From: an uncultured Candidatus Saccharibacteria bacterium
GTDB lineage: Bacteria; Patescibacteriota; Minisyncoccia; Phycocordibacterales; UBA2100
Length of the DNA: 36,751 bases
Assembly (NCBI GenBank): GCA_964399865.1
Contig: CAYNRJ010000002.1
Span: 227,108 to 263,858, forward strand
Direction: 5' to 3'
Part shown: piece after piece, positions 20,413-30,458 of the stretch
How positions within the stretch are numbered: position 1 is the stretch's first letter
Layout: every line of letters begins with the position of its first letter
Made by a program: the position numbers and the translations under genes
Notes under the pieces: generated by a model
Database searches by the model: none
The model's input: the letters and a program-made list of their open reading frames with translations, nothing else
What the model was told of the DNA's origin: nothing

Positions 20413-20447
20413 CGCCGCCGGTCCACACGGGCCGGCGGCTCTTCTTT
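20413..20447 (+). terminator. Rho-independent terminator (27-nt hairpin, copy 1, plus T-run)
   Basis: cgccgccggtcc / acac / gggccggcggc followed by tcttcttttt. The 27-nt hairpin sequence is identical at 21739-21765. Confidence 0.7.
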
Positions 20448-20487
20448 TTGACTGGGCAAGAAGTGGGATTTGTGGGAAGATTTTTGC
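20442..20487 (+). promoter_or_regulatory. Reused upstream module, copy 1 (TTGACTGGGCAAG...GGGATTTGTGGGAAGATTTTTGC)
   Basis: 38/43 identical to 23557-23599. It contains TTGACT (20448-20453) and TGG+GAAGAT (20473-20481), the latter 6 nt before ATG 20488. Confidence 0.45.
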
Positions 20488-21738: not shown

Positions 21739-21765
21739 CGCCGCCGGTCCACACGGGCCGGCGGC
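21739..21765. terminator. 27-nt hairpin, copy 2, between convergent genes
   Basis: Identical to 20413-20439: cgccgccggtccacacgggccggcggc. Confidence 0.65.
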
Positions 21766-22948: not shown

Positions 22949-22964
22949 GATTCCCAATCATGAA
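22949..22964 (+). repeat. 16-nt direct repeat A, copy 1 (GATTCCCAATCATGAA)
   Basis: Identical to 23525-23540, which is the last 16 nt of the DUF2726 CDS including its stop codon. Confidence 0.8.
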
Positions 22965-22985
22965 GATTTGTGGGATGATTTTGGG
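22965..22985 (+). promoter_or_regulatory. Partial copy of the reused upstream module (GATTTGTGGGATGATTTTGGG)
   Basis: 18/19 identical to 23582-23600. TGG+GATGAT (22971-22979) lies 6 nt before ATG 22986. Confidence 0.45.
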
Positions 22986-23540
22986 ATGTTTCCAGCCGCC
23001 GAACTTTTTCAGGTTCTCTTTTGGCCATTTATTTTTCTCGCGGTAGCAATTGTCGGAATAACTGCGATCATCGGACTTTATAGTATCTTTTTTGCGAAAG
23101 AGAGAGGAGTCGAAAAGTCAGCGACACTGTATCAGTACGGAGCTAAAAAGTTTTTCATGACTTGCGCCGAGCACGAGTGCTACGACGCACTTGTAGCGGC
23201 GGTGGGGAGCGAATATTACGTATTCCCCCAAGTGCATCTTCCGGCAATCGTAGACAATAAAGTAGCGGGGCAGAACTGGGCGGCAGCATTCCGTCATATC
23301 AACGGGAAATCAATAGACTTTGTACTCTGCGACAAGGCGTACATTTCCACTAAGCTGGCCATTGAGCTCGACGACAAGACACATGAGCGTTCGGACAGGG
23401 TGGGGCGGGACGCGGAGGTGGAGCGAATACTCAAGCAGGCAGGCGTACCGCTTCTGCGCCTTAGGAACAACGGGGGATTTAGTGCAGACTCGTTAAGGGT
23501 AGAGATCAAGACGAGTGTAATCTCAGATTCCCAATCATGA
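22986..23540 (+). CDS. DUF2726 domain protein (PD-(D/E)xK-like fold) with an N-terminal TM
   Basis: The TM is LFQVLFWPFIFLAVAIVGITAIIGLYSIFF. The core is FMTCAEHECYDAL...YVFPQVHL...SIDFVLCDK...LAIELDDKTHE...RDAEVERILKQAGVPLLR, as in DUF2726 proteins. The start is taken as ATG 22986. Confidence 0.75.
   Translation: MFPAAELFQVLFWPFIFLAVAIVGITAIIGLYSIFFAKERGVEKSATLYQYGAKKFFMTCAEHECYDALVAAVGSEYYVFPQVHLPAIVDNKVAGQNWAAAFRHINGKSIDFVLCDKAYISTKLAIELDDKTHERSDRVGRDAEVERILKQAGVPLLRLRNNGGFSADSLRVEIKTSVISDSQS
23525..23540 (+). repeat. 16-nt direct repeat A, copy 2
   Basis: GATTCCCAATCATGAA, identical to 22949-22964. Confidence 0.8.
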
Positions 23541-23556
23541 AATGGGTTCGGGCGGT

Positions 23557-23603
23557 TTCTTTTTGACTGGGCAAGGGGCGGGATTTGTGGGATTATTTTG
23601 ATG
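23557..23603 (+). promoter_or_regulatory. Reused upstream module, copy 2
   Basis: ttctttttgactgggcaaggggcgggatttgtgggattattttg. It is preceded by only a GC-rich half-site (gggttcgggcgg) with no complementary arm, unlike copy 1. Confidence 0.45.
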
Positions 23604-23611
23604 ACCGGCAC

Positions 23612-26287
23612 ATGAATATTGATATATCAAATCTTGAAAAAAATATCCAAGCTCTAGTAACTGCGGAAGATAAAGAAGGGTTCATATACGAGCTATTAAA
23701 GATCTACGGTTTCCCCAAGGCAACCATCACACTCCTGAGAAAGGATCCGTCAAAGATTTCTAAGAATGCAAACGAGATAATTCTCAGAAATAAACTCGTC
23801 TTTCACGCTTTAACTGAGAACGAAGACGAGCACCTAGTGATTGACGCTCTTCTCCATGATAAGGCAGTCTCTGCCAATAAACCACGATTCATCATCGTGA
23901 CGGACTTTGATGTGCTTTTGGCTATTGATACCAACACTAGAGAAACTCTGGATATTCCTTTTTCCAAATTCCCGAAGCACTACACCTTCTTCCTTCCTTG
24001 GACTGGCCGCGAAAAGTATCGAGGAGAAAATGAGAGTCCTGCAGATATAAAGGCGGCAGCAAAAATGGCTGCACTATACGACCAGCTCATTGCAGAAAAC
24101 CCATATTATGCGAAAGATCATGCCCACGATCTGAACCTATTCCTAACTCGTCTGCTGTTTTGCTTTTTCGCAGAAGACTCTGGGATATTCCCGGCAAATT
24201 TATTTTCAGGGTCAATCATATCTCATACATCTGAGGATGGAGTTGATTTTAGAAAATATTTGGAGGAGCTATTCGGAGTCTTAAACGTCGAGGGTTCAAA
24301 GAGGCTCGGGATAGCGGAGCATTTGAAGCCGTTTCCGTATGTGAACGGAGGTTTATTTGAGGAAGCAATTCAGCTACCGGATTTCTCGAGAAGATCTCGG
24401 GGTTTAGTTGTTGAGACTAGCAAACTAAATTGGTCTGAAATAAATCCGGACATCTTCGGCTCGATGATCCAAGCAGTTACGCATGCCAGTATGCGTGCTG
24501 ATCTTGGAATGCACTACACCTCCGTATCAAACATTCTCAAAGTAATAAATCCGCTCTTTCTTGAATCTTTGAAGAGTGAATTGGATAAGGCAGGAGAAAA
24601 CGTGAAGCGTTTGGAGGGATTGCGTGATCGCATCACAAAGATACGCGTATTCGACCCTGCGTGTGGCTCAGGAAATTTTCTGATCGTATCGTTTAAAAAG
24701 CTATGCGAGCTCGAGATCGAGATCATAGATCGTATACAGGCTCTTGGTCAAAATACAATGCCCCTGTCCGGCATTTCTCTAAATAACTTTTTTGGCATCG
24801 AGATTGATGACTTTGCACACGAGATTGCAAGGCTCTCGCTATGGCTCGCGCAACACCAGATGAATCTTCAATTCAACGACGCTTTCGGGTTTTCAAAGCC
24901 GGCTCTGCCTTTAAAAGAGGCCGGGAAAATCGTATGCGGGAACGCTACCCGACTGGATTGGACCGAAGTATGTCCTGTCGTTGGTCGAGACAATGAGGAA
25001 TACGAAATATATGTCATTGGAAACCCTCCATACGAAGGGTCAAGAAAGCAAAAAGGATCACAAAAGGAGGACTTAAAAGATTTATTTGAGAAAGACTATA
25101 AAAGCCTGGATTATATTTCGGCTTGGTTTTATAGAGGAGCGTCTTATATTTCAACTCATCAAAAGATTGAACTTGCCTTCGTATCGACTAACTCAATCAC
25201 TCAAGGCGAACAGGTCGCTCTGCTTTGGCCTCGCGTTTTGGGAAATGGTGTAGAAATAAGCTTCGCACACAGATCGTTTAAATGGAAAAATCTAGCAAAA
25301 TACAATGCCGGAGTTGTATGTGTAATCATTGGGCTAGCTCATCCCTCAGAAAGGCAAAAGTATATATACACTGAGGATGAACAAATTTTGAAAGTTGCGA
25401 GAATCAACCCCTACTTAACAGAGGCCGACGTGGTTTATATTACGCGCAAAGCGAATCCAATTTCGCAATTCCCGACGTTGACCTTCGGTAATATGCCGAA
25501 CGATGGAGGACATCTTATTTTGTCCAATGAAGAACGGAAAGAGCTCATATCATCACATCCTGACGCTGAAAGATACATCAAGAAATACGTTGGCGGCGAT
25601 GATTTCTTGAATGGGCGTATCAGATATTGTCTTGTGATTCCAGATAGAGAAGTCGAAACCGCGATACAAATTCCGGAAATAAAGACTAGGCTGGAAATGG
25701 TTTCAAAAGTTAGAAGTGAGAGTTCAGAAAAAAGCACGAGGGAGAAATCAAAATTCCCACACAAATTTTACTTTTGGGTGCATCAGGACACCACATCAAT
25801 AATTGTGCCTTCAACAACCTCAGAAAGAAGGGTTTATATCCCCATTGGTTTCTTGAACGGTGACACTGTTGTATCTAATTCTGCTCAAGTAATATACAAC
25901 CCGCCTATCTATATTTTTGGTGTACTTACATCCAAGATGCACATGGTCTGGGTGCGCGCTGTCGGTGGAAAAATGAAGACGGACATACGTTACTCGTCGA
26001 CAATCTGTTACAACACATTTCCTTTCCCAAATATTACTGATGCACAGAAGCGTCAGATCGAGGAGCATGTTGGGAATATTCTGGATGAGCGAGAAAAGTA
26101 TCCGGAAAAGACGATGGCAAGCCTCTACGATCCTGAATTGATGCCCCTGGGCTTGAGGCAAGCGCACTCATTTCTCGACGAAGTAGTTGATCAGATATAT
26201 CAAAAGAAGCCATTCAGAAGTGACGAAGAGCGTCTCGCTTGCCTCTTTAAACTCTATGAAGGTATGTTAGTTAACGAAAAGAATTAA
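23612..26287 (+). CDS. MmeI/PglX-like gamma-class N6-adenine DNA methyltransferase with TRD; N-terminal domain lacks an obvious nuclease triad
   Basis: Motif I FDPACGSGNF (24650-24679) and motif IV NPPY (25022-25033). There is long collinear similarity to MmeI as I recall it (LTRLLFCFFAED, FPYVNGGLFEE, HYTS.SNILK, FFGIEIDDFA.EIA.LSLWL, FVSTNSITQGEQVALLWP, FAHRSFKW, INPYL, GNMPNDGG, YIPIGF, YNTFPFP, LYDP..MP..L..AH). The start could be ATG 23612 or TTG 23585. Confidence 0.9.
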   Translation: MNIDISNLEKNIQALVTAEDKEGFIYELLKIYGFPKATITLLRKDPSKISKNANEIILRNKLVFHALTENEDEHLVIDALLHDKAVSANKPRFIIVTDFDVLLAIDTNTRETLDIPFSKFPKHYTFFLPWTGREKYRGENESPADIKAAAKMAALYDQLIAENPYYAKDHAHDLNLFLTRLLFCFFAEDSGIFPANLFSGSIISHTSEDGVDFRKYLEELFGVLNVEGSKRLGIAEHLKPFPYVNGGLFEEAIQLPDFSRRSRGLVVETSKLNWSEINPDIFGSMIQAVTHASMRADLGMHYTSVSNILKVINPLFLESLKSELDKAGENVKRLEGLRDRITKIRVFDPACGSGNFLIVSFKKLCELEIEIIDRIQALGQNTMPLSGISLNNFFGIEIDDFAHEIARLSLWLAQHQMNLQFNDAFGFSKPALPLKEAGKIVCGNATRLDWTEVCPVVGRDNEEYEIYVIGNPPYEGSRKQKGSQKEDLKDLFEKDYKSLDYISAWFYRGASYISTHQKIELAFVSTNSITQGEQVALLWPRVLGNGVEISFAHRSFKWKNLAKYNAGVVCVIIGLAHPSERQKYIYTEDEQILKVARINPYLTEADVVYITRKANPISQFPTLTFGNMPNDGGHLILSNEERKELISSHPDAERYIKKYVGGDDFLNGRIRYCLVIPDREVETAIQIPEIKTRLEMVSKVRSESSEKSTREKSKFPHKFYFWVHQDTTSIIVPSTTSERRVYIPIGFLNGDTVVSNSAQVIYNPPIYIFGVLTSKMHMVWVRAVGGKMKTDIRYSSTICYNTFPFPNITDAQKRQIEEHVGNILDEREKYPEKTMASLYDPELMPLGLRQAHSFLDEVVDQIYQKKPFRSDEERLACLFKLYEGMLVNEKN

Positions 26288-26288
26288 T

Positions 26289-28235
26289 ATGAAAACGATC
26301 CAAGTAGCAGAGGCGTTTTACGCTCAAAATGGGAATAGCACGAAGATTAATGATCTTGGCATGCGCGAGATGCAGGCCAAGGCGTTTGAAATGAGAGACG
26401 CACAATACCTCCTGCTCAAAGCACCCCCGGCATCAGGCAAATCTCGAGCATTGATGTTCTTGGCCCTCGATAAGCTCCAGAACCAAGGGATCAAGAAAGT
26501 TATTGTTGCGGTCCCAGAGAAGACAATTGGCGGTTCTTTCGCAGCAACCGATCTCAAATCGCACGGTTTCTTTGCTAACTGGGAACTAAACGATGCATAT
26601 AACCTCTGCACTCCAGGGCTTGATGACAGCAAGACCAAAGTTGAGGCGTTCCTGAAATTCATGGATAACAGTGAGAAAATACTGATCTGTACGCACGCTA
26701 CCCTCCGTTTTGCCTGCGAAAAGATTGCGCCCGAGAAATTCAACGACACGCTCGTCGCTATTGATGAGTTCCATCATGTATCGGCAGACAAGGAGAGCAG
26801 CCGATTAGGCACTGTACTTCACACGATAATGACGAAGTCGAGTGCTCATGTGATTGCCATGACCGGCTCATACTTCCGCGGTGATGGAGTAGCAGTGCTC
26901 ATGCCCGAAGACGAGGCGAATTTTACCAAGGTTACGTACACCTACTACCAGCAGCTGAACGGCTATACATATCTAAAATCCCTCGGCATCGGGTACCATT
27001 TTTATCAAGGCCGATATACGTCTGCGATCGCTGAGGTTCTAGATACAGATAAAAAAACGATTCTACACATCCCGAATGTAAATTCAGGTGAATCAACGAA
27101 GGACAAACTGAACGAAGTCGACACGATCCTAGACATAATAGGTGAGGTTATAAAGCAAGATCCAGAAACGGGCGTCATTTACGTCAAAAGGGATGGTGAT
27201 GGAAAGGTAATAAAGGTTGCTAATCTTGTTGATGATTCAAGCGAGCGCGAAAAAATCGTCAGCTATCTGAGGTCTATGAAAGACCTTGATGACATGGACC
27301 TGATTATCGCATTAGGTATGGCTAAAGAGGGTTTTGATTGGCCATACTGCGAGCATGCCCTTACGGTCGGCTATCGAAGTTCACTAACAGAGATAATTCA
27401 GATAATTGGAAGGTGTACACGAGACAGTAAGAACAAGACCCACGCACAGTTTACAAATTTGATCGCGCAGCCTGACGCTAAAGACGCCGAGGTTAAGGTG
27501 GCAGTAAACAACATGCTGAAAGCGATTACTTGTTCACTCCTCATGGAGCAAGTAATGGCCCCGCACTTCAACTTCAGAGCAAGAAGATCTCCAGACGATA
27601 AAAGTACAAATCCAGGCGAAATTAAGATTACTGGTTTTAAAGAACCGAGTTCATCTCGCGTAAAGGATATTATTGAAACCGACATAAACGACCTCAAAGC
27701 CGCAATACTACAGGATGATCAGTTGGTACGCGCTCTCCCTGGGAACCTAGATGCTGAGGTAATAAATAAGGTAATGATTCCTAAAATTATCCAGACACGA
27801 TATCCAGATCTGACCGATGAAGAGATAGAGGAGGTACGTCAACATATTATCGTCGACTCTGTCATTAAAAATGGAGAGATCAAAGAAGTTGGAGACAAAA
27901 AATTCGTCAGGATGGCGGGCCAATTCGTAAATATCGACGATCTGCACATTGATCTAATTGATAAGGTGAATCCATTTCAAGAAGCTTTCGAGATACTTTC
28001 GAAATCAGTAACAAGCACCGTATTGAAAGCGATCCAAGACACCATCGAATCAACTCGCATTGAAATCACCCCCGAAGAGGTCCGTATTCTCTGGCCAAAG
28101 ATTAAAGAATTTAAAGTCAGGACTGGGAAAGCACCTGAATTATCTTCACGAGACCCGCTCGAACGCAGGATGGCAGAAGCAGTAGTCTACTTAAAGCGCG
28201 TCAAATCCGAGCAAAATCAAAATGAACAAGGATAA
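26289..28235 (+). CDS. SF2 helicase/translocase (DEAD/DEAH-box, type III Res-like)
   Basis: Motif I PPASGKSRA (26421-26447), motif II DEFH (26763-26774), motif III MTGSYFRGD and motif VI QIIGRCTRD. About 200 aa at the C-terminus are unassigned. There is a 1-nt gap to the upstream gene. Confidence 0.9.
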   Translation: MKTIQVAEAFYAQNGNSTKINDLGMREMQAKAFEMRDAQYLLLKAPPASGKSRALMFLALDKLQNQGIKKVIVAVPEKTIGGSFAATDLKSHGFFANWELNDAYNLCTPGLDDSKTKVEAFLKFMDNSEKILICTHATLRFACEKIAPEKFNDTLVAIDEFHHVSADKESSRLGTVLHTIMTKSSAHVIAMTGSYFRGDGVAVLMPEDEANFTKVTYTYYQQLNGYTYLKSLGIGYHFYQGRYTSAIAEVLDTDKKTILHIPNVNSGESTKDKLNEVDTILDIIGEVIKQDPETGVIYVKRDGDGKVIKVANLVDDSSEREKIVSYLRSMKDLDDMDLIIALGMAKEGFDWPYCEHALTVGYRSSLTEIIQIIGRCTRDSKNKTHAQFTNLIAQPDAKDAEVKVAVNNMLKAITCSLLMEQVMAPHFNFRARRSPDDKSTNPGEIKITGFKEPSSSRVKDIIETDINDLKAAILQDDQLVRALPGNLDAEVINKVMIPKIIQTRYPDLTDEEIEEVRQHIIVDSVIKNGEIKEVGDKKFVRMAGQFVNIDDLHIDLIDKVNPFQEAFEILSKSVTSTVLKAIQDTIESTRIEITPEEVRILWPKIKEFKVRTGKAPELSSRDPLERRMAEAVVYLKRVKSEQNQNEQG

Positions 28236-29373
28236 CCTAATAGACATAATCAGCGATGACGACCTCGGACTTCTTGACGATACCAAGAAGGTCGTGAGCA
28301 GTACGCCTGAAGACCGACTGATCCAAGCATTTAAGGAGATCAACGATTTCTTTGACCTCCATGGTAAAGAGCCACAGAAAAGTAATGATGTTCACGAACG
28401 AAAGCTTGCTGCAAGACTTGAATCTATTCGCGCCAATCAAAATTATAAAGATTCACTGAAGAGTCATGATAAATACAACCTATTAGATCAGGTTGAGGTA
28501 AAGACTTTCAAGAACATAGACGAGATTCTGGAAGACGATGATCTGGACCTTCTTGGTGTGGAAGAAGGTTCAATATTTACCCTTGCGAATGTTCCCAAAG
28601 AATCAAAGAAGCTTGATGAAGTGGCAAGGAGACGCCCATGCAAAGACTTTGAGAGATATGAACCTTTGTTCGTTCAGGTCCAAGAAGACCTGAGGACTGG
28701 GAAGAGAATACTCGATAAGTTTGTAGAAAACCAACAACTCAATAAAGGTACTTTTTTTGTTGCGGGTGGAGTATTGGGTGTGATTATTTCGGCTGACCTA
28801 ACGAAAGATGATCAGGGCCGAAGAAATGGCAGGCTTTACTGTGTATTTGAAAACGGTACCGAATCTAACCTTCTTCTCCAATCTTTGGTGCGTTATTTGA
28901 CGGTAGATTATCCGGGGAAAATCGTTGTCGAAAACAATCCTGCCGACCGTCTTTTTAATCCTGAAGACACTAAGTCCGGATACATCTACATACTGCGTTC
29001 ATTGAGTGCAAATCCAGAGATTGCAGGCATGAAGAACCTCTATAAAATTGGCTTTTCCGAAATAACGGTCGAGGAGAGAATCAAAAATGCTGAGGTTGAC
29101 CCAACCTTCCTGATGGCTCCGGTAAAAATTGTGAGCGTATTTGATTGCTATAACATGAGCACCCATAGGCTTGAACGGCTGCTGCACCGTTTCTTTGGAG
29201 AAGTGAAGCTGAACATTGATATAACGGACAAGAATGGAGACAGATACACACCAAAGGAGTGGTTCGTTGCACCCATTGCCGTAATAACTGAAACAATAAA
29301 CAGAATCGTTGATGGCACAATTGTTGAATATAAGTACGATCCTGAGGCTCAACGCATGGTAAAAAGGATATGA
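28222..29373 (+). CDS. T5orf172/MUG113 (GIY-YIG superfamily) domain protein with an acidic N-terminal region
   Basis: The C-terminal region is SGYIYILRS...NLYKIGFSEITVEERI...HRLERLLHRFF...PKEWF (approx 28975-29330). It overlaps the helicase gene by 14 nt. Confidence 0.8.
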   Translation: MNKDNLIDIISDDDLGLLDDTKKVVSSTPEDRLIQAFKEINDFFDLHGKEPQKSNDVHERKLAARLESIRANQNYKDSLKSHDKYNLLDQVEVKTFKNIDEILEDDDLDLLGVEEGSIFTLANVPKESKKLDEVARRRPCKDFERYEPLFVQVQEDLRTGKRILDKFVENQQLNKGTFFVAGGVLGVIISADLTKDDQGRRNGRLYCVFENGTESNLLLQSLVRYLTVDYPGKIVVENNPADRLFNPEDTKSGYIYILRSLSANPEIAGMKNLYKIGFSEITVEERIKNAEVDPTFLMAPVKIVSVFDCYNMSTHRLERLLHRFFGEVKLNIDITDKNGDRYTPKEWFVAPIAVITETINRIVDGTIVEYKYDPEAQRMVKRI

Positions 29374-29534: not shown

Positions 29535-29584
29535 AAATAGGCGGTAGACTAGCGTAATTCAAATTATCTTTTTCGATACTGAAA
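29535..29584 (+). repeat. 50-nt direct repeat, copy 1: a decayed duplicate of the exonuclease promoter and 5' end
   Basis: aaataggcggtagactagcgtaattcaaattatctttttcgatactgaaa is 46/50 identical to 30409-30458. ATG is ATT in this copy. Confidence 0.8.
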
Positions 29585-29745: not shown

Positions 29746-30369
29746 ATGAAGATCCTTCTTGTCGTTATTCTATTCATAGTTATTCTCTGGACTATTTGGG
29801 GGTATTTCTCGTCCAACGTAGAACAAGCTCAGTACTCGGTCGTTAAGATAGCTGATGGATACGAACTGCGCGAATATGCCGCACACATAGAAGCTCAAGT
29901 CACTGTAGAGGGCTCATATGACGAAGCACTAAACAAAGGATTTAGGATAATTGCCGGATACATTTTTGGCGGCAATACTAAAAAAGAAAGCATTGCCATG
30001 ACTGCGCCGGTACGAGAGCAAAAACAATCATCGGAAAAGATAGCGATGACCGCACCGGTCGTTGCCCGTACGGAGGGAGACTCGCGAGTAATTGCGTTCG
30101 TCATGCCCAAAAGCTACTCGCTTGCGACGCTCCCAACCCCGACGGACTCCCGAGTAAAACTTGTCGAGGTGCCACCAAAAAAGATGGCAGTACTTCAGTT
30201 CTCGTGGTTTAGGAATAGTAGTCGCGTACAGAGAATGGAAGCTCAGCTGCTCTCAATGCTTTCTCGCGACAAATTGGAGGTAGTCGGCAGCCCATCGTAT
30301 GCCGGGTACAACGCTCCATGGACTCCGCCGTGGATGACGCGCAATGAAGTGATGGTAGAAGTCCGCTAG
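29746..30369 (+). CDS. SOUL heme-binding family protein
   Basis: N-terminal TM, then Y.VV....YELREY, GF..IAGYIFGGN and a duplicated IAMTAPV, as in SOUL/HEBP proteins. TGGTAAACT lies 7 nt upstream of the ATG. Confidence 0.85.
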   Translation: MKILLVVILFIVILWTIWGYFSSNVEQAQYSVVKIADGYELREYAAHIEAQVTVEGSYDEALNKGFRIIAGYIFGGNTKKESIAMTAPVREQKQSSEKIAMTAPVVARTEGDSRVIAFVMPKSYSLATLPTPTDSRVKLVEVPPKKMAVLQFSWFRNSSRVQRMEAQLLSMLSRDKLEVVGSPSYAGYNAPWTPPWMTRNEVMVEVR

Positions 30370-30408: not shown

Positions 30409-30458
30409 AAATAGGCGCTAGACTAGCGTAATGCAAATTATCTTTTTTGATACAGAAA
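30409..30458 (+). repeat. 50-nt direct repeat, copy 2 (functional promoter and first 28 nt of the exonuclease CDS)
   Basis: It contains TAGACT (30419-30424) 6 nt before ATG 30431. Confidence 0.8.

Follow-up and report, generated by a model that had tools for sequence, protein, structure and literature searches.

The stretch of DNA analysed here, in the following called the window, consists of 36,751 nucleotides (nt) from an uncultured Candidatus Saccharibacteria bacterium (contig CAYNRJ010000002.1). From position 23612 to position 29373 it carries three co-directional genes which very probably represent, in intact form, the YeeA(DnmA)-YeeB-YeeC family of three-subunit defence systems of the restriction-modification (RM) kind. 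A sequence-only reading of the window had joined these genes to a fourth one upstream, coding for a DUF2726 protein, and had taken the four together for a defence system without a name and without an entry in the catalogues. Direct support for the YeeABC identity comes from the homology of all three proteins, the intact catalytic motifs, the translational coupling and a nearly universal synteny, each of which is shown here.

The gene trio and its earlier descriptions

The three genes and the recognizable parts of their products are listed below; positions are those of the window, and lengths of proteins are in amino acids (aa).

23612..26287, + strand: yeeA/dnmA-like gene; 891 aa; MmeI-family gamma-class N6-adenine methyltransferase plus target recognition domain (TRD)
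23633-24094, + strand: MmeI_N domain of YeeA, aa 8-161 (Pfam, 4e-25)
24581-25369, + strand: methyltransferase domain of YeeA, aa 324-586 (Pfam MmeI_Mtase, 3e-105)
25427-26035, + strand: TRD of YeeA, aa 606-808 (Pfam MmeI_TRD, 3e-78)
26289..28235, + strand: yeeB-like gene for a superfamily 2 (SF2) helicase/translocase; 648 aa
26367-26867, + strand: RecA1 domain of YeeB, aa 27-193
27237-27422, + strand: Helicase_C domain of YeeB, aa 317-378
28101-28232, + strand: conserved C-terminal tail module of YeeB, aa ~605-648
28222..29373, + strand: yeeC-like gene; 383 aa; C-terminal T5orf172/MUG113 domain (GIY-YIG superfamily)
N-terminal part of YeeC: helical module with two acidic DDDLxLL motifs
Middle part of YeeC: beta-rich domain with an invariant NGTES motif
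28978-29307, + strand: T5orf172/MUG113 domain of YeeC, aa 253-362 (Pfam T5orf172 4e-11, MUG113 1e-13)

The positions of the four co-directional genes, the DUF2726 gene included, were borne out by a check of the open reading frames (ORFs) and by an independent gene call of the same contig, which agree. The tight packing of the last three genes was likewise confirmed from the ORFs: yeeA and yeeB are separated by 1 nt, and yeeB and yeeC overlap by 14 nt. The GC content of the trio is 0.42-0.45 against 0.505 in the remainder of the window, which suggests that the trio was acquired from outside. The low GC content that had been claimed for the whole cluster is thus a property of the trio; the DUF2726 gene with a GC content of 0.50 and a GC content at third codon positions of 0.55 is host-like. 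No tRNA was found in the window, and no recombinase family is recorded among the called genes of a ~20-kb locus which extends 10 kb upstream and 8.5 kb downstream of the trio. A scan for sigma-70 promoters gave fewer promoter-like sites than were found in shuffled sequences, and the gaps between the four genes contain no terminator-like sites; the scan neither supports nor excludes co-transcription of the DUF2726 gene and yeeA.

Work touching on the YeeABC cluster has been published by Morgan et al. (2009), Nye (2020), Fernandez et al. (2023) and Piel et al. (2021/2022). Morgan et al. (2009; PMC2731913) divided the MmeI homologues into two sets, the second of which is devoid of PD-ExK and differs from MmeI in the first ~100 aa, the remainder being highly similar. 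Members of the second set were “invariably” found beside a DEAD helicase (YeeB) and a GIY-YIG protein (YeeC), and it was proposed that the MmeI-like subunit provides specificity and a protective single-strand modification, while its altered N-terminus recruits helicase and nuclease. In the study by Fernandez et al. (2023; PMC9973331) YeeA was renamed DnmA; in Bacillus subtilis it is responsible for gene-regulating N6-methyladenine (m6A) at GACGAG. The same authors described the helicase at position +1 and the T5orf172/GIY-YIG protein at position +2 downstream as conserved across bacteria, and noted that YeeB and YeeC of B. subtilis are without C-terminal stretches present in the Vibrio proteins. 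Piel et al. (2021) reported that yeeAB alone gave Vibrio crassostreae 7F1_18 resistance to one phage group.

The claim that the system is unnamed and uncatalogued therefore has to be given up, since YeeA, YeeB and YeeC were described, with the same mechanism proposed, by Morgan et al. (2009; PMC2731913), and again by Fernandez et al. (2023; PMC9973331) and Piel et al. (2021). Known since 2009 and found widely, the trio does not count as a novel type of defence system. Literature searches gave no newer name for it beyond YeeABC/DnmA, and a preprint on a “DnmA” of S. mutans does not mention helicase partners. The catalogues are another matter. PADLOC-DB 2.0 has a proper model for the methyltransferase only (Type IIG), YeeB matches only fragments of its PbeA and Cas3 models, YeeC matches PDC-S57 weakly and the DUF2726 protein matches nothing in it; NCBIfam holds no model for the partners of the methyltransferase. 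The trio is thus known from the literature, yet with no multi-gene model in PADLOC-DB 2.0 it is not represented there as a system, and as PADLOC 2.0 sees just a “Type IIG” enzyme the helicase and nuclease partners go unreported.

The three proteins

The domains named in the sequence-only reading were all recovered by Pfam (DUF2726, MmeI_Mtase, MmeI_TRD, DEAD/ResIII/Helicase_C and T5orf172/MUG113), and the motifs quoted there are all present in the translations. In YeeA these are methyltransferase motifs I (FDPACGSGNF) and IV (NPPY), which are intact. The protein matches all five MmeI domains of Pfam (MmeI_N, MmeI_hel, MmeI_Mtase, MmeI_TRD and MmeI_C) and therefore retains the full architecture, only the catalytic motif having gone; the word “split” that had been used for the methyltransferase is for this reason not appropriate. 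The PADLOC model REase_MTase_IIG (PDLC03598) covers YeeA from end to end with 1011 bits, and a phmmer comparison with MmeI (5hr4) is collinear over aa 88-885 (E 2e-188). The first ~87 aa did not align with MmeI 5hr4, even when searched alone at E <= 10. The catalytic residues of MmeI, which we take to be D70...E80-x-K82, fall inside the stretch that YeeA does not align. In an alignment of 62 homologues drawn from related loci, aa 1-90 contain no conserved D, E or K, and only F24, L29 and R91 of the N-terminal stretch reach 95% conservation. The N-terminal PD-ExK endonuclease motif of MmeI and the Type IIL enzymes is thus missing from YeeA, whose N-terminus is, as judged from these alignments, a catalytically dead MmeI_N-type domain.

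YeeB was compared by BLASTP with two named proteins, the sequences of which (like those of the corresponding YeeC proteins) were machine-read from Fig S5 of PMC9973331. It is 63% identical to YeeB of B. subtilis over 600 aa, i.e., the whole of that protein, and 53% identical to YeeB of V. crassostreae over the full length. The Pfam matches to DEAD, ResIII and Helicase_C are weak, yet they pass the threshold. Among 22 diverse homologues there is no variation in helicase motifs I, II, III and VI (G50-K51-S52, D159-E160-x-H162, T192-G193 and Q371...G374-R375...R378), and PPASGKSRA, DEFH, MTGSYFRGD and QIIGRCTRD are all found in the window protein. Of the PDB structures, the one that best matches an AlphaFold2 (AF2) model of YeeB (pTM 0.70) is the Type ISP enzyme LlaBIII, with HsdR of EcoR124I also ranking high.

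The window YeeB runs ~43 aa past the end of the B. subtilis protein, and this extra part matches the tail of the Vibrio protein; the tail is the segment absent from the YeeB of B. subtilis, which does not defend. The tail may be a docking element. A motif of ~35 aa (I.dF...nGreP...d..Er.La..L..lR) is common to the YeeB tail (28101-28232) and aa 26-84 of YeeC (28297-28473). When a hidden Markov model (HMM) of the N-terminal module of YeeC was run against the YeeB homologues it matched their extreme C-terminus, in ~18 of the 22 at E < 0.01 and with at most 18.6 bits, E-values which are flattering because the database was tiny. The YeeB of the window itself gives a merely nominal match (E 0.16, 2.7 bits), so that in the window the likeness between tail and YeeC is supported chiefly by inspection of the two segments. 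Searched separately against Pfam, the YeeB tail, the N-terminal module of YeeC and the N-terminal half of YeeC gave no family.

YeeC is 38% identical to the V. crassostreae protein (E 1e-83) and 37% identical to the B. subtilis protein (E 7e-64; both BLASTP). In 52 homologues G253, Y256, K275, G277, R286 and E346-W-F are invariant, and the GIY-YIG-type motifs G253-x-I-Y256, Y274-K-I-G277, R286 and E346 show little or no variation. The AF2 model has three domains and a mean pLDDT of 79.7. The two copies of the acidic DDDLxLL motif, at 28255-28278 (aa 12-19) and 28531-28554 (aa 104-111), contain the residues D13, L17, L18 and D106, which are invariant in the 52 homologues; as the copies lie in low-confidence linkers of the AF2 model they may be short linear interaction motifs.

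Family spread, cargo and neighbouring features

The YeeB family counts more than 8000 clusters at 90% identity and 2296 clusters at 50% identity. The top matches to the window YeeB are 78-85% identical, and their names are mostly from Patescibacteria. A scan of 185,579 species genomes, one per species, gave at least 598 stretches encoding a YeeB relative (598 of the 600 matches listed), and relatives occur on 265 plasmid records of PLSDB, 120 of which are conjugative. Searching a phage collection with YeeB gave just three partial matches; YeeB is thus not a typical phage gene. On plasmids of Acinetobacter the helicase is often fragmentary, with matches spanning only aa 1-160 or 150-636.

Gene neighbourhoods were compared by tblastn in a set of 87 other loci, 80 from genomes (>12 phyla) and 7 from plasmids or metagenomes. 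A YeeC homologue lies directly 3' of the helicase gene in every one of the 83 loci with sufficient sequence on that side, at a distance of a few to ~400 nt and mostly <100 nt. An MmeI-like methyltransferase is encoded upstream on the same strand in 78 of the 87 loci, and the other 9 have <2.4 kb of upstream sequence. The order methyltransferase - DEAD/DEAH box helicase - GIY-YIG protein is also found in RefSeq (Bacillus, Vibrio, Moraxella and Synechococcus plasmids). These figures uphold the claim that a methyltransferase with TRD, an SF2 motor and a T5orf172/GIY-YIG protein make up one conserved restriction-like unit. Across the 87 loci the identity is 59-85% for the helicase against 35-57% for YeeA and 29-67% for YeeC.

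The junction between yeeA and yeeB is a place where other genes are found. In 29 of 76 loci (L005, L006 and L011-L088) it holds 0.6-6 kb of co-directional genes, among them RhuM (8 times), Schlafen AlbA_2+HATPase_c_4 (6 times), Fic (3 times), PIN (twice) and PDDEXK_3 (twice), and further DarT+Macro, HamA, Abi_C, YhcG and HigB. As these are classic RM-embedded defence genes the junction behaves like a cargo hotspot of Type I RM systems, and such typical defence cargo counts for a defence role of YeeABC. The window trio has no junction cargo, the gap being the single nt at 26288. Close relatives of the trio have a helix-turn-helix gene or a large serine recombinase alongside, not DUF2726; in three of them (L007, L008 and L009) the adjoining recombinase consists of Resolvase+Recombinase+Zn_ribbon_recom. 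On the Vibrio parahaemolyticus plasmid pHLE-202006 (L004, 9375-10538) a “restriction endonuclease” gene lies directly 3' of yeeC; it may be a lineage-specific fourth component, distinct from DUF2726.

The features upstream of yeeA are the following.

22986..23540, + strand: DUF2726 gene; 184 aa; Vsr/DUF559-like PD-(D/E)xK-type protein with a hydrophobic N-terminus
22949..22964 and 23526-23541: 16-nt exact direct repeat GATTCCCAATCATGAA; two copies where 0.03 are expected
23582..23599, + strand: leader motif GATTTGTGGGATTATTTT, 13 nt before the ATG of yeeA; further copies at 22965-22982 and 20467-20484

The DUF2726 protein is recognized by Pfam at 1.7e-28, and 71 nt separate the stop codon of its gene from yeeA. 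Its homologues number more than 1400; the best are 56-76% identical, ~165-175 aa long and have names from Patescibacteria. A tblastn search found a DUF2726 homologue in 0 of the 87 other YeeABC loci, and the membership in the system that had been proposed for it is accordingly not maintained. In six other contexts (L091, L093, L095, L097, L098 and a JGI contig) a homologue, 56-70% identical, lies 4-60 nt from the adjoining gene on one side and is co-directional with the defence-like module there, a different one each time: an SNF2/PLD helicase with an Eco57I-type methyltransferase, a superfamily 1 helicase, a PHP-AAA_21 ATPase, a caspase-DEAD helicase, a Type III-like Mod+Res pair, and Mrr with a KAP NTPase. 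Six unrelated partner modules mean that DUF2726 has no specific link to YeeABC. Nothing bearing on defence was found in the literature on DUF2726. We conclude that the DUF2726 gene is an independent neighbour and not a conserved YeeABC component, and that it is a defence-island gene or hotspot marker. The JGI contig and the window both carry downstream Glyoxalase/3-dmu-9_3-mt genes.

It had also been claimed that junction repeats bracket the cluster. No repeat pair flanking the trio was found, and the repeats that do exist bracket the DUF2726 gene or a SOUL-family gene, while the leader motif precedes three genes. The GATTCCCAATCATGAA pair encloses only the DUF2726 gene and its leader, the second copy being formed by the last DUF2726 codons and the stop; the pair may have been left by an insertion or a recombination which placed the DUF2726 gene. 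The leader consensus GATTTGTGGGA(A/T)NATTTT has three matches where 0.13 are expected, and the copies lie 3-12 nt before the ATG of three genes, which code for an AdoMet_dc-like protein, DUF2726 and YeeA. Two of the copies are preceded by TTCTTTTTGACTGGGCAAG, which gives a wider 43-nt pair at 20442-20484 and 23557-23599. The motif looks like a common promoter or leader cassette, though it was not called by the sigma-70 scan. An 18-nt resemblance to the yeeA leader after yeeC was considered as a boundary of the trio and is too weak to use.

Two further repeats were seen in the window. A 27-nt GC-rich hairpin, CGCCGCCGGTCCACACGGGCCGGCGGC, occurs in 100% identical copies at 20413-20439 and 21739-21765, the 3' ends of two different genes; the copy at 20413 is followed by a T-run and is terminator-like. 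A 50-nt duplication, 92% identical, is found at 29535-29584 and 30409-30458 and consists of the upstream region plus the first 28 nt of an RNase_T/ExoX-like gene. ATT has taken the place of the ATG in the first copy, and what the pair encloses is the SOUL-family gene (29746-30369) rather than the defence cluster.

Interpretation and comparison with known systems

The way YeeABC could work may be pictured as follows. YeeA would read a short asymmetric site and methylate one adenine on one strand as a mark of self; this one-strand marking is suggested by analogy to MmeI and to DnmA of B. subtilis with its m6A at GACGAG. The dead MmeI_N-type domain of YeeA would, instead of cutting, dock YeeB and YeeC. 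At an unmodified site YeeA would engage YeeB, presumed to be an ATP-driven SF2 translocase on double-stranded DNA, and YeeB would bring in YeeC, whose T5orf172/GIY-YIG-type domain would cut the DNA. Since the marking would be on one strand only, cleavage would call for communication between sites and would probably need two unmodified ones, as in the analogous cases of MmeI, Type III, Type ISP and MANTIS.

Several observations weigh against a restricting YeeABC system in the window and should be noted together. Both the cleavage by YeeC and the formation of the complex are what we infer. The direct comparison with named YeeABC proteins covered YeeB and YeeC. The structural matches of YeeB are generic for SF2, with nearly equal E-values, and a Foldseek search of the PDB with the whole three-domain model of YeeC gave no significant match, the best being EF-P/eIF5A-like barrels at E ~7e-3; the basis of the GIY-YIG assignment is therefore the Pfam match to T5orf172/MUG113 together with the conserved residues. 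Morgan et al. (2009; PMC2731913) found no endonuclease activity in YeeA. Fernandez et al. (2023; PMC9973331) found that the B. subtilis locus neither protected against three phages nor restricted transformation, and that phage genomes show no depletion of the DnmA motif. In that organism m6A at GACGAG regulates genes, and it has been proposed for B. subtilis DnmA that YeeA is an orphan gene-regulating methyltransferase and that YeeB and YeeC are relics which no longer restrict. That the same is true of the window locus we regard as fairly unlikely: the three ORFs are intact and translationally coupled, the invariant catalytic residues are present, and YeeB has the full C-terminal tail that the B. 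subtilis copy is missing. Furthermore, a helicase that is 59-85% identical across phyla speaks for strong purifying selection and horizontal spread, and the low GC content of the trio, which points to an origin elsewhere, also argues against a relic.

The other alternatives concern the number of genes in the system. A four-gene system of an unknown kind, in which a membrane-anchored DUF2726 nuclease acts together with the methyltransferase, the helicase and the T5orf172 protein, would account for the orientation of the DUF2726 gene, its closeness to yeeA, the leader motif common to both, and the tight association of its homologues with defence-like modules in other Patescibacteria. We nevertheless hold it to be very unlikely, considering its absence from all other YeeABC loci, its host-like GC content unlike that of the trio, its own 16-nt flanking repeat, the six unrelated modules it accompanies elsewhere, and the fact that the conserved unit in the literature is the trio alone. 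A milder proposal is that DUF2726 serves the Patescibacteria as a portable nuclease or sensor in an accessory role, plugging into many helicase, ATPase and methyltransferase defence modules, and that the window holds a lineage-specific four-part variant. Its basis is that in 7 of 7 contexts, the window included, the gene is co-directional with a different defence-like module and 4-71 nt from the neighbouring gene on that side. We consider this improbable, and equally likely is the alternative to it that DUF2726 is a resident gene marking a hotspot of defence-gene integration. At the other extreme the trio might be taken for an ordinary single-chain Type IIL/IIG (MmeI-like) RM enzyme with two unrelated neighbours, the label to be expected from HMM-based annotators given the full-length match to PDLC03598 and the five Pfam domains. 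There is hardly any probability left for this reading, as the first ~87 aa are not alignable to MmeI and contain no conserved catalytic residues, YeeA and a Moraxella homologue were without endonuclease activity (PMC2731913), and both neighbours are conserved in essentially every locus.

The YeeABC family is very widespread and under-studied, and the window locus is an ordinary further member of it. Being intact, free of cargo and full-length, with a YeeB tail like that of the active Vibrio system, the window copy is a reasonable candidate for reconstitution.

The sequence-only reading had set the trio apart from MmeI, Type ISP, BREX and Hma, and this part of it stands. BREX was rejected: the PglX matches from NCBIfam and PADLOC span just ~80 aa of the S-adenosylmethionine-binding motif, and no PglZ, BrxC or BrxL family is among the called genes in the ~20-kb locus. 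Hma and MANTIS/Gao_RL were rejected because the cluster has no ATPase gene (HmaC; MtsA/MtsB), and no Hma or Gao_RL model is among the PADLOC matches of the four proteins (for the methyltransferase, the best 25 of 45). In MANTIS (bioRxiv 2026) a methyltransferase related to BREX/PglX hemimethylates asymmetric 6-bp sites and the effector is a helicase-nuclease, which resembles the scheme given above, and restriction favours inverted site pairs. It differs by the AAA+ ATPase MtsA, the co-regulator MtsB and the fusion of helicase and nuclease in the effector; none of these genes is present at this locus.

The window trio agrees with YeeABC of B. subtilis and V. crassostreae in its three proteins, in their order and in their orientation, including a methyltransferase without PD-ExK, and its YeeB is as long as that of the defending V. 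crassostreae system. It differs from them in having neither inserted cargo nor an adjacent recombinase and in the DUF2726 gene upstream. The TRD is different too, YeeA homologues being just 35-57% identical, and presumably recognizes a different target site. With Type I RM systems YeeABC shares the separation of methyltransferase/specificity and motor into different subunits, and the family shares with them the operon-embedded defence cargo (RhuM, Fic, Schlafen, Abi and others). Unlike Type I RM it lacks a separate HsdS and keeps nuclease and motor on different chains, and the target is probably contiguous, asymmetric and methylated on one strand.

The closest relationships are with MmeI and the Type ISP enzymes. 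YeeA of the window has the same methyltransferase, TRD and C-terminal domains as MmeI and the other Type IIL (IIG) enzymes, and therefore probably makes single-strand m6A at an asymmetric site; in contrast to them it is without PD-ExK, and nuclease and ATP-dependent motor reside on separate polypeptides. The Type ISP enzymes LlaGI and LlaBIII combine the same activities, i.e., nuclease, SF2 translocase, gamma-class methyltransferase and TRD, but in a single chain and with an Mrr-type nuclease, whereas the window has three chains and a predicted nuclease of the GIY-YIG/T5orf172 type. A Type ISP enzyme was therefore rejected on account of the three separate ORFs, only the motor fold of YeeB resembling LlaBIII. 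YeeABC would then be a naturally split counterpart of the Type ISP and MmeI enzymes, equipped with a GIY-YIG-type nuclease.

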